Below, in pieces: positions 33,055-33,499 of a stretch of 64,000 nt of DNA. The stretch is from Escherichia coli (GTDB lineage Bacteria; Pseudomonadota; Gammaproteobacteria; Enterobacterales; Enterobacteriaceae). The position numbers and the translations under genes were made by a program. The notes beneath the pieces are model-generated. The model ran no database searches and was not told the origin of the DNA. It saw only the letters and a list, made by a program, of their open reading frames with translations. Every line of letters starts with the position of its first letter. Position 1 is the first letter of the stretch. The DNA is taken from NCBI RefSeq assembly GCF_017348835.2, contig NZ_CP071375.1; one strand, 5' to 3'.

Positions 33055-33126
33055 AGCGACCTCTACAGTAAATAAAACGTTATTTATATGTTAATAATAA
33101 GTAATGATTGCGCTGTAAATGTAGAT

Positions 33127-33142
33127 TGCAGGGTTCGTGCCA
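33127..33142 (-). promoter_or_regulatory. Candidate sigma-54 (-24/-12) promoter for astC
   Basis: Minus-strand sequence TGGCACGAACCCTGCA (GG-N10-GC), about 70 nt upstream of the astC start; the ast operon is known to be NtrC/sigma-54 dependent. Confidence 0.55.
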
Positions 33143-33207
33143 GCCAGTGATAAAAGTGCATAAAAGGGAGCGATTAACTGTTAATCAAGGAGTTACAACC
33201 GGACGAT

Positions 33208-33225
33208 ATGCACTAAAAGTGCATA
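33208..33225. promoter_or_regulatory. Palindrome resembling an NtrC/enhancer-type site in the astC-xthA intergenic region
   Basis: ATGCAC-TAAAA-GTGCAT perfect inverted repeat about 80 bp upstream of the candidate sigma-54 promoter; assignment to NtrC is inference. Confidence 0.35.
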
Positions 33226-33499
33226 TAAAGTGAATACGTTTGTGATATGGATGGATAAAAAGAATAAAAAACGCAATGTTATGCAAAAGTAAAATATAAT
33301 TCTGGAATTGTGATCATTGACGAAATTTACTGGAAATTACTGCGCCATTCTGACGCAGCGCGCACCAAAAGCGGGCATTTTTTGCGCCATCGTTGACATC
33401 ATTAACAACCATCGATCAAATCACTTAACAACAGGCGGTAAGCACAGCGAAATTCTGCTACCATCCACGCACTCTTTATCTGAATAAATGGCAGCGACT

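Follow-up and report, generated by a model that had tools for sequence, protein, structure and literature searches.

The 445-bp spacer between astC and xthA in this Escherichia coli chromosome is the known, well-studied control region of the arginine-breakdown operon astCADBE. We read it, with a probability of about 0.8, as a composite region combining overlapping sigma-54 and sigma-S promoters, distant NtrC dyads, and ArgR and IHF-like sites between them, in which a perfect palindrome would represent the junction of ARG half-sites. The documented regulators of the operon are RpoN, RpoS, NtrC and ArgR, the latter being accessory and non-essential, and a first-pass annotation describing a nitrogen- and arginine-dependent ast control region was right in its overall reading. 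The two flanking genes, as it had named them, agree with the RefSeq annotation:

31834..33054, minus strand, astC CDS (succinylornithine transaminase), first gene of astCADBE; a 406-aa ORF, annotated as such in RefSeq for K-12 and for a 100%-identical genome.
33500..34306, plus strand, xthA CDS (exodeoxyribonuclease III), identified by the RefSeq annotation of identical and near-identical genomes.

The divergent partner xthA is kept in 73 of 80 loci. The conservation figures given below derive from an alignment of 73 enterobacterial astC-xthA spacers covering more than 15 genera, with a 17-genus sample inspected in detail, and E. coli allele counts refer to 5,410 complete E. coli genomes. The window, i.e. 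the whole 64,000-nucleotide stretch that was analysed, belongs to a rare lineage, as 100% identity was found only to PE164 and F2_81 and identity to most E. coli is ~97%. The K-12 astCADBE region is the same locus, and its spacer is ~95% identical (24 differences over 445 bp). The sigma-54 box, the NtrC-like dyads and the main ARG box are all identical between the two sequences. Half of the differences (12/24) are clustered in 33165-33205, and a single one of the 24 falls inside the elements, which together cover 205 bp (binomial P 8e-6); this constitutes an independent check.

Transcription of astC is predicted to start from two overlapping promoters, and a candidate promoter element is observed on the xthA side of the spacer:

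33125..33142, minus strand, sigma-54 promoter TGGCAC-N5-CTGCA(AT), with the -24 GG at 33141/33140 and the -12 GC at 33129/33128.
33116, minus strand, predicted sigma-54 +1, placed from C33128 as -12 and giving a 62-nt 5' UTR.
33118..33124, minus strand, sigma-S-type -10, C-TACATT, overlapping the sigma-54 promoter; the hexamer assignment is putative, with a start predicted at ~33111.
33456..33464, plus strand, candidate xthA -10 region TGCTACCAT, within a conserved block (33450-33477; at least 95% of the 73 spacers); its promoter role is presumptive, with a start predicted at ~33471.

The sequence TGGCACGAACCCTGCA (33127-33142 on the minus, astC strand) had been proposed as a sigma-54 promoter at a sensible distance from the astC start. 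It fits the sigma-54 consensus TGGCAC-N5-TTGCW at 10 of 11 positions, and in 64 kb there is a single occurrence of TGGCAC-N5-YTGCW, versus 0.14 expected by chance. The matrix scan suggested as a check returned this same site as the best match of the window, both strands considered (17.4 bits, background P 8e-6). The matrix was derived from 16 Salmonella ChIP-chip promoters with astC left out (training range 15.9-23.5 bits); the known yeaG promoter at 58838, which served as positive control, was also retrieved. The box is found in 73/73 spacers, 61-64 nt from the astC ATG. In K-12, the identical 17-mer is site OS17 of the sigma-54 ChIP-seq study of Bonocora et al., where it is flagged as previously confirmed and listed at 62 nt to astC; this distance agrees with the proposed -12 element and equals the leader length obtained from the predicted +1. 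An RpoN gSELEX peak (in vitro) is also located in the astC-xthA spacer. The orthologous astC site of Salmonella, near-identical in sequence, is bound in ChIP-chip: in the Salmonella Typhimurium ast promoter, Samuels et al. (2013) located the sigma-54 site TGGCACGAATGCTGCAAT upstream of astC, with NtrC assigned as activator. The window TGGCACGAACCCTGCA is a sigma-54 promoter, the occupancy data being those of the identical K-12 sequence and of the Salmonella orthologue.

Immediately after the -12 element, ATCTACATTTACAG is nearly invariant in the 73 spacers and harbors the putative sigma-S-type -10; the expression of the ast operon is described in the literature as strongly RpoS-dependent. In the first reading of the control region the sigma-54 promoter was correctly recognized, but this overlapping -10, the NtrC-like dyads and the IHF-like core were overlooked. 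A generic sigma-70 promoter scan of the spacer did not call the candidate xthA -10, and generic sigma-70 promoter and terminator scans of the spacer returned nothing meaningful.

Upstream of the sigma-54 box are found the palindrome and a series of predicted ArgR sites, together with a short invariant word:

33206..33226, no strand, the palindrome of the first-pass annotation, 9+3+9 in the window allele, centred at 33216 (-100).
33218..33235, no strand, main ARG box, predicted ArgR site centred at -110.5 (12.2 bits, background P 6e-5), overlapping the right arm of the palindrome.
33207..33213, no strand, adjacent putative ARG half-site in the other palindrome arm, GTGCATA on the astC strand and GTGAATA in most genera.
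33270..33305, no strand, secondary, weaker ArgR-like region with boxes at 33270-33287 (8.7 bits) and 33288-33305 (5.6 bits), at ~-162/-180.
33155..33162, minus strand, invariant TTATGCAC motif just upstream of -24, at ~-42 (at least 95% of the 73 spacers).

The string ATGCAC-TAAAA-GTGCAT (33208-33224) has one match in the window versus 0.01 expected. It is longer than had been claimed, since it extends to a perfect 9+3+9 arrangement, ATATGCACT-AAA-AGTGCATAT, at 33206-33226, and it lies 81 bp upstream of the sigma-54 box, centre to centre, where ~80 bp had been announced. The perfect allele (an exact 35-bp stretch around the palindrome) is present in 5 of the 5,410 E. coli genomes, versus 5,401 for the two-mismatch K-12 form, ATATGCA-N7-TGCATAT. 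Two further differences to K-12, at 33213 and 33215, generate the perfect form from this common one, and both fall outside the main ARG box. Other genera display AT(G/T)CA-N7-TG(A/C)AT at this position, mostly ATGCA-N7-TGAAT, the arms being kept and the 7-bp spacer being variable; Buttiauxella and Cedecea possess a pure ATTCA-N7-TGAAT. The perfect palindrome is most likely a lineage-specific accident on predicted ArgR half-sites and not a separate element.

For scoring the ARG boxes, 22 such boxes of K-12 served to build the matrix (training range 8.4-21.4 bits). The main box matches wnTGAATwwwwATTCAnw at 13 of 16 consensus positions, and a box of at least 8 bits is found at -110 in 65/73 spacers (89%). 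At least 95% of spacers keep the T, G, A, T and A of the adjacent half-site, which sits 7 bp from the ATGCA half-site; in tandem ARG boxes with a 3-bp spacer the inner half-sites are 7 bp apart, ArgR bending being centred there. TGCAT/ATGCA variants represent about one third of the half-sites in genuine K-12 ARG boxes. The partner box (33197-33214) scores -5.1 bits (-0.7 in K-12), and only its inner half-site is conserved. A search for two-box ArgR operators (39 bp, 2-3 bp gap) yielded, as best double box in the spacer, 12.1 bits versus 24-37 for classical operators. A canonical two-box operator centred on the palindrome, for which the geometry fits, was discarded because of the degeneracy of the second box; the arrangement is better described as a single box with a neighbouring half-site, or about one and a half boxes. 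Read by itself as an ARG box, the palindrome scores 4.6 bits here and 8.6 in K-12 and reaches at least 8 bits in 29% of spacers, and was retained as an overlapping alternative register only. In the secondary region, a box of at least 8 bits is found at -162 in 34% of spacers and the TGCATAA core is conserved; a further matrix match (33259-33276) scores 5.6 bits. The first-pass annotation had placed ArgR boxes in the AT-rich stretch 33230-33340, where TGAAT/ATTCA-like words and these three weaker matches do occur, but the best box lies mostly outside it. ArgR binding at the ast promoter region is reported in secondary sources, and the ARG boxes described here are predicted to be the bound elements.

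An operator of another dimeric regulator, different from ArgR, might also account for ATATGCA-N7-TGCATAT; an example would be the factor behind the ArgR-independent arginine induction of ast, a phenomenon stated in the title of Kiupakis and Reitzer (2002, J Bacteriol 184:2940). Conserved arms around a free spacer would suit such an operator. In the main ARG box the left half reads TCACT, a conserved sequence that departs from the consensus, so that another register or another protein may apply, and the second box is degenerate. In addition, the TTATGCAC word recurs invariant at ~-42, where the ArgR matrix scan found no ARG box of at least 4 bits; this motif shares with the left arm of the palindrome the direct repeat TAAAAGTGCATA, present at 33151 and 33214, 63 bp apart. 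However, the arms are exact ARG half-site words at tandem-box spacing, and ArgR is the factor reported to bind the ast promoter region. We know of no alternative regulator with an ATGCA/TGCAT-type half-site, and consider this explanation unlikely.

It could also be suggested that the palindrome itself is an NtrC site, either an enhancer or a low-affinity, promoter-proximal site of the “governor” type like glnAp2 sites 3-5. It contains the NtrC half-site words TGCAC and GTGCA, and the NtrC matrix gives the window allele 5.4 bits (P 0.002), but the K-12 allele, that of the 5,401 genomes, scores -2.0 bits. A gap of 5 bp, in place of 7, separates the half-sites, and hence only 7 of the 12 NtrC consensus positions match in register. 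In most genera the right arm is TGAAT, not TGCAC-type, and no NtrC-like site of at least 8 bits recurs at this position across the 73 spacers, whereas such sites are found in ~85% of them at -233/-253. The role of distinct regulatory element, enhancer or NtrC-type, that the palindrome had been given is not borne out by these scores and allele counts, and an NtrC site at this position appears very improbable.

The NtrC matrix points instead to a pair of dyads located 120-160 bp upstream of the palindrome:

33341..33357, no strand, promoter-proximal NtrC-like dyad TGCGCCATTCTGACGCA, centred at -233 (11.3 bits, P 5e-5; third best match in 64 kb).
33361..33377, no strand, distal NtrC-like dyad CGCACCAAAAGCGGGCA, centred at -253 (10.8 bits, P 6e-5; fourth best match in 64 kb).

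Both dyads match TGCACCA-N3-TGGTGCA at 9 of 12 positions and are 20 bp apart. A site of at least 8 bits occurs at -233/-234 in 84% of spacers and at -253/-254 in 85%, and these are the only positions with recurring NtrC-like sites in the 73 spacers. The proximal dyad is identical in K-12, and the half-site of the distal one reads TGCACC in most other genera sampled. The columns without variation coincide with TGC...GC in the NtrC logo from the literature. The matrix was validated by its top match, upstream of yeaE, where gSELEX puts an NtrC peak; at ~11 bits, the dyads score under the strong training sites (15-19 bits). The upstream NtrC region had not been located in the first-pass annotation, and the tandem dyads at 33341-33357 and 33361-33377 are likely the NtrC enhancer. 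Databases presumably place the astC NtrC sites near -232 and -253.

Binding of NtrC to the astC-xthA spacer has been observed in vitro by gSELEX and in vivo by ChIP-seq (Brown et al.). The ChIP-seq bin lies on the promoter, away from -233/-253 and nearer the palindrome than the distal dyads, which would at first sight favor the palindrome. As an arbiter between the two it was rejected: the bins of glnA, glnK, glnH and nac are also within ~0-110 bp of the ATG, while their known enhancers are 130-215 bp upstream. The bins are promoter-centred for every calibrator and do not track enhancers, and are thus uninformative on enhancer position.

The GC-rich dyads might conversely have no relation to NtrC, being an xthA operator (~95-130 bp upstream of its promoter) or a chance GC-rich patch, as they are closer to xthA than to astC and remain below the strong NtrC sites in score. 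Against this, they form two adjacent matches, each with P ~5e-5, and keep their distance to the astC sigma-54 start to within 1 bp in the different genera, while the distance to xthA varies with indels in the xthA-side part of the alignment. Their conserved columns are NtrC-specific, and NtrC does bind the spacer both in vitro and in vivo. This explanation is highly improbable, and an NtrC enhancer remains the preferred assignment.

That the palindrome acts via nucleic-acid structure, as a DNA cruciform or an RNA hairpin, has a negligible probability: as ssDNA it folds to a 9-bp stem (-7.4 kcal/mol, z-score -5.7), but 9-bp pairing is restricted to the 5 genomes with the perfect allele, the spacer and the outer arm bases are free between genera, an Rfam search returned no family match, cruciform extrusion usually calls for palindromes longer than 21 bp, and its position upstream of both predicted starts (astC +1 at ~33116, xthA -10 at ~33459) makes its presence in either mRNA unexpected.

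Two further conserved elements were identified in the spacer:

33183..33195, plus strand, IHF-like core AATCAAGGAGTTA (consensus WATCAANNNNTTR), centred at -73.
33287..33332, no strand, Lrp-like conserved block (TGATCACAATTCCAGAATTATAT, AAATTTCG), at least 95% of spacers at most positions.

The IHF-like core motif WATCAANNNNTTR has 2 matches in 64 kb and is found at -73/-72 in 69/73 spacers, its four N positions varying freely in the 17-genus sample. No report of IHF at astC was found in the sources consulted. ArcA direct repeats (GTTA...GTTA) at 33180-33196 were considered in place of IHF and rejected, as the upstream repeat is not kept outside Escherichia while every specified IHF position is. 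The Lrp SELEX consensus is matched at 13 of 15 positions at 33290-33304 (P 1e-4) and at 12 of 15 at 33318-33332, and astC is among the reported direct targets of activation by Lrp. A CRP site at 33305-33326 was also rejected: it possesses a single good half-site (TCACA), its conserved left flank is AAATTTCG and not TGTGA, and it lies ~200 bp from either start. To note, a search of literature text for six of the site sequences gave no literal match.

In the mechanism that we propose, transcription would proceed leftward from the overlapping sigma-54 (33142..33127, +1 at ~33116) and sigma-S-type (-10 at 33124..33118) promoters. Under nitrogen limitation, phosphorylated NtrC bound to the tandem 17-bp dyads (-233, -253) would activate the closed sigma-54 complex via DNA looping. 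The intervening DNA may hold architectural or co-activator sites at fixed distances, namely the main ARG box and its neighbouring half-site, the weaker ArgR-like boxes and the IHF-like core. Bending of this DNA by arginine-bound ArgR, and probably also by IHF, would increase NtrC-dependent transcription, which would correspond to the published ArgR-dependent superinduction. The proteins assigned to the upstream elements, as well as the looping and bending, are predictions from sequence. The palindrome would consist of back-to-back ARG half-sites (ATGCA and TGCAT, 7 bp apart) where the main box meets the degenerate second one, a point that would correspond to the ArgR bending centre of canonical operators; the complementarity reaches its perfect form through the two rare substitutions in the lineage of this strain.

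Such an architecture resembles that of glnHp2-type NtrC/sigma-54 promoters, which likewise combine tandem upstream NtrC sites with a weak sigma-54 promoter, the bend site lying in between; astCp and glnHp have been grouped in the literature as weak promoters to which ArgR or IHF binds naturally. The probable ast enhancer is, however, unusually far from the start: NtrC site centres lie 129-213 bp upstream of the ATG for K-12 glnK, glnH, nac and glnA, versus 295-315 bp at ast. ArgR being an arginine-dependent bender, the ast architecture may also serve to feed in a second signal. Canonical ArgR operators (argF, argI, carAB, argECBH) comprise two 18-bp ARG boxes with a 3-bp joint. The ast main box scores within the range of genuine boxes and has its neighbouring half-site at the canonical 7 bp. 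In contrast to the canonical operators, which overlap the promoter and repress, the predicted ast ArgR site is located at -90 to -120 and acts positively. In the ast operon of Salmonella Typhimurium (Lu and Abdelal 1999), arginine and ArgR raise expression under nitrogen limitation. All the conserved blocks are shared by S. enterica subsp. arizonae, including TGCACCAGAACGGAGCG at the proximal dyad, and with GTGAATA as right arm Salmonella is devoid of the perfect palindrome.

A broader reading is that of a family-wide, rigid nucleoprotein scaffold with elements fixed within 1 bp across more than 15 genera: NtrC dyads at -253/-233, Lrp-like block at ~-175 to -215, ArgR at -110 and IHF-like core at -73. 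At least one unassigned element would bind the factor of ArgR-independent arginine induction, and IHF and/or Lrp would co-regulate the operon. Candidates for the site of this factor would be the Lrp-like/GATC block (33287-33332), the IHF-like core and the TTATGCAC word at -42. We hold this extended reading to be doubtful.

The locus was already known, astCADBE having a textbook sigma-54/NtrC promoter whose accessory factor, ArgR, responds to arginine. Its most striking feature from sequence alone, a palindrome carried by ~0.1% of E. coli genomes, is here kept from being taken for a regulator site, and the probable NtrC enhancer is placed 120-160 bp beyond the region initially highlighted. From the 73-genome comparison the constrained elements can be mapped to single bases; among them are an IHF-like core and an Lrp-like block, neither of which appears in the regulator lists consulted. 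Both bear on the unexplained ArgR-independent arginine induction of ast. If the scaffold reading is true, IHF and/or Lrp would be undocumented direct co-regulators of astCADBE.

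The 445-bp spacer between astC and xthA was correctly recognised in the first-pass annotation as the control region of the astCADBE operon, which is already known. The flanking ORFs are placed by the annotation of matching RefSeq genomes:
31834-33054, minus strand, astC ORF
33500-34306, plus strand, xthA ORF

Two genomes (PE164 and F2_81) match a 1.2-kb query at 100%, and nearly all of the other 5,424 match it at ~97%; over its final 11 kb (52952-64000), the window is likewise 100% identical to PE164. Judging from these identities, the source strain is a member of an uncommon E. 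coli lineage. In the window, pncA is directly followed by yeaC at 53587-53748. K-12 carries the ydjE-ydjL cluster (~10 kb) between these two genes, and this cluster appears to be absent from the lineage of the window.

The sigma-54 promoter of astC is confirmed, and was known before. Its box, TGGCACGAACCCTGCA, is located at 33127-33142 on the astC strand, and a degenerate sigma-54 pattern yields one match in 64 kb against 0.14 expected. With a matrix derived from 16 Salmonella ChIP-chip promoter sequences, astC excluded, TGGCACGAACCCTGCA is the top match of both strands of the window (17.4 bits, training range 15.9-23.5); a positive control, the established yeaG promoter at 58838, is also found. 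Bonocora et al. (2015) listed ChIP-seq site OS17, CTGGCACGAACCCTGCA, 62 nt from astC and marked as previously confirmed; the K-12 sequence of OS17 is identical in the window. Taking C33128 as the -12 base puts +1 at 33116 and gives a 62-nt leader, equal to the distance of Bonocora et al. The orthologous Salmonella site, TGGCACGAATGCTGCAAT, was identified by ChIP-chip (Samuels et al., 2013), gSELEX peaks of both RpoN and NtrC fall within the spacer (Shimada et al., 2021), and the box is found in 73/73 enterobacterial astC-xthA spacers, 61-64 nt from the ATG. Given the ChIP-seq, ChIP-chip and gSELEX matches, the leader length and this conservation, the promoter proposed in the first-pass annotation is borne out, with no sub-threshold motif score and with a predicted start that agrees with the published distance. 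In the leader, the segment 33067-33098 holds a conserved TTAACAT (around 33092-33098) and TTTATTTAC before the GAGG Shine-Dalgarno. Elsewhere in the window, two matches have the strength of real promoters, 45038-45055 (minus strand, 17.0 bits) and 47343-47360 (plus strand, 16.6 bits). Both lie within long minus-strand ORFs (44903-46006 and 46071-48089) and could be sigma-54 sites inside genes, a type described by Bonocora et al., whose main-text table does not contain them.

A probable NtrC enhancer, absent from the first-pass annotation, is located far upstream of this promoter. The NtrC matrix, built from seven K-12 sites (from glnA, glnK, glnH, nac and argT), reveals two tandem dyads:
33341-33357, NtrC-like dyad TGCGCCATTCTGACGCA, 11.3 bits
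33361-33377, NtrC-like dyad CGCACCAAAAGCGGGCA, 10.8 bits

They are the two best matches of the spacer and the third and fourth of the whole window, each with P ~5e-5, adjacent and 20 bp apart. As an internal positive control, the best match of the window, TGCACCACCGTAATGCA at 57703 (13.5 bits), and its neighbours at 57733 and 57562 lie just upstream of yeaE. The dyad cluster (57562-57749) extends from directly upstream of yeaE (56831-57685, minus strand) into the gene, and Shimada et al. reported an NtrC/RpoN gSELEX peak at this place (yeaE-mipA). Among the 73 spacers, NtrC-like sites of at least 8 bits recur only at -233/-234 (84%) and -253/-254 (85%), counted from the predicted sigma-54 start. 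The invariant dyad columns coincide with the TGC and GC bases stressed in the published NtrC logo, and the distal dyad reads TGCACC in most other genera sampled. Matrix score and conservation together suggest that NtrC probably binds both dyads (33341-33377) as an enhancer. Database positions for NtrC at ast, about -232 and -253, would agree with the dyads.

An apparent conflict arises from the ast NtrC ChIP-seq location of Brown et al. (2014), 1830021-1830101 in U00096.2 coordinates, which falls at the promoter, 15-95 bp before the astC ATG. The calibrator bins of the same study are also promoter-placed, which resolves this conflict: they lie 4-84 (glnA), 1-81 (glnK), 33-113 (glnH) and -16 to 64 bp (nac) upstream of the ATG, whereas the NtrC sites of these promoters are centred 129-213 bp upstream. 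The coordinates thus track the promoter in every calibrated case and are unable to place an enhancer.

The palindrome ATGCAC-TAAAA-GTGCAT, also singled out in the first-pass annotation, is present at 33208-33224 as the sole match in the window (0.01 expected), and with the adjacent bases its symmetry is perfect over 9+3+9 (33206-33226). Its significance was over-interpreted, as it is a rare allele with a poor NtrC score: among 5,410 complete genomes of E. coli, 5 have the exact 35 bp around it and 5,401 the two-mismatch K-12 form, ATATGCA-TTTAAAG-TGCATAT, with 7-bp arms. Across genera, the position reads AT(G/T)CA-N7-TG(A/C)AT with freely variable spacer bases; the right arm is GTGAATA in most genera, and ATTCA-N7-TGAAT is found in Buttiauxella and Cedecea. 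From this comparison, the constrained arms are best described as ARG-box half-sites. The canonical ArgR operator consists of two 18-bp boxes with a 3-bp spacer, leaving the inner half-sites 7 bp apart, the same gap as at the palindrome position; ArgR bends DNA by 70-90 degrees, centred on the junction of two boxes (Cho et al., 2015). The substitutions perfecting the palindrome, 33213 and 33215, both lie outside the main ARG box; in the two-box reading, one occupies the spacer between the boxes and the other an 'n' position free of constraint, a pattern consistent with neutral drift. As an NtrC site the palindrome is poor: its NtrC-type half-sites are 5 bp apart, against 7 in NtrC sites (TGCAC-N7-GTGCA within TGCACCA-N3-TGGTGCA), and it scores 5.4 bits, the K-12 allele -2.0. 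Nucleic-acid structure is unlikely, since the palindrome is upstream of both predicted starts and hence expected in neither mRNA, the 9-bp pairing is limited to a handful of genomes, and no Rfam family matches it.

ArgR sites were scored with a matrix of 22 boxes, found by the matrix itself in 11 K-12 promoters. It recovers the classical operators of argF, argI, carAB, argECBH, argA, argG and argR, and TGCAT/ATGCA variants make up about one third of the real half-sites in this set. The main box of the spacer lies at 33218-33235, with its centre at -110.5; it scores 12.2 bits (background P 6e-5), shares bases with the right palindrome arm and has the same sequence in K-12. Lesser boxes are found at 33270-33287 (8.7 bits), 33259-33276 and 33288-33305 (5.6 bits each); the ArgR boxes suggested earlier between 33230 and 33340 thus hold approximately for these weaker ones, the strongest having been missed. 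Boxes of at least 8 bits occur at -110 in 89% of the 73 spacers and, less often, at -122 (36%), -162 (34%) and -100 (29%). The expected partner box (33197-33214) scores -5.1 bits, with conservation of its inner half-site only: the ArgR site is one box plus a half-site and not a canonical 39-bp operator. An ARG-like box of at least 8 bits is also seen at +24 in 18% of the spacers (4.7 bits in the window). The top two-box match of the window, AGTGATTATTCATCATATTTAAGTGCAAAAATATTCAGA (63888-63926, 20.7 bits), is located at the cdgI 3' end, with dgcJ ~165 bp further on; we know of no ArgR link for these diguanylate cyclase genes.

Several other elements are conserved. Directly after the -12 element, ATCTACATTTACAG is nearly invariant in the 73 spacers and may represent the -10 (C-TACATT) of a sigma-S-type promoter, as would suit an operon described in the literature as strongly RpoS-dependent. 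Centred at -73, AATCAAGGAGTTA (33183-33195, plus strand) fits the IHF core WATCAANNNNTTR, which has just two matches in 64 kb; an IHF-like core stands at -73/-72 in 69/73 spacers, its four N positions varying in the genera sampled. No report of IHF at astC was found in the accessible literature, which also does not name it among ast regulators. Between the ArgR and NtrC sites lies the block 33287-33332 (TGATCACAATTCCAGAATTATAT and AAATTTCG), where conservation reaches at least 95% at most positions. Two stretches agree with the Lrp SELEX consensus at 13/15 (P 1e-4) and 12/15 bases, and the block also has a GATC that never varies, plus one half-site resembling that of CRP; astC was classed as a direct Lrp-activated target by Kroner et al. 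Just upstream of the -24 element, TTATGCAC (33155-33162, ~-42) is invariant across genera. It and the left palindrome arm belong to a direct repeat, TAAAAGTGCATA (33151-33165 and 33214-33228, 63 bp apart), and no ARG box was scored there. On the minus strand, GTAAT-N5-GTAAA (33326-33340) matches 9/10 positions of the CpxR direct-repeat consensus, and is conserved solely in Escherichia, Salmonella and Citrobacter. According to one paper, RegulonDB gives CpxR sites for astCADBE. On the xthA side, a conserved block (33450-33477, plus strand) contains TGCTACCAT, a -10 element of the extended or -13C-like type; transcription of xthA would then begin near 33471, with a ~29-nt leader. A generic sigma-70 scan made no call there.

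The spacer differs from that of K-12 at 24 positions, only one of them within the 205 bp of assigned elements (binomial P 8e-6). This within-species variation is independent support for the elements, the NtrC, ArgR, IHF and Lrp sites among which are assigned from matrices, conservation and secondary literature. Half of the differences (12/24) are crowded into a non-conserved 41-bp linker, 33165-33205, where divergence reaches ~29% against 2.8% in the surrounding 3.5 kb; they flank the IHF-like core and leave it untouched. Spacer length is 433-446 bp in 63/73 loci and element positions are constant to within 1 bp, which suggests that helical phasing is under selection.

Occupancy of the sigma-54 box has been demonstrated for the identical K-12 sequence, and we infer the remaining steps of activation. 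Sigma-54 holoenzyme would form a closed complex at 33125-33142, and NtrC-P, assembled on the tandem dyads ~240 bp upstream, would contact it by looping. ArgR, with arginine bound, would occupy roughly -90 to -120 and, weakly, the region near -160 to -180; probably joined by IHF at -73, it would bend the intervening DNA and increase activation. Secondary sources describe ArgR as accessory and non-essential for ast in E. coli, and one describes astCp as a weak, naturally ArgR-bound promoter. In stationary phase, a sigma-S promoter overlapping the sigma-54 core would be used.
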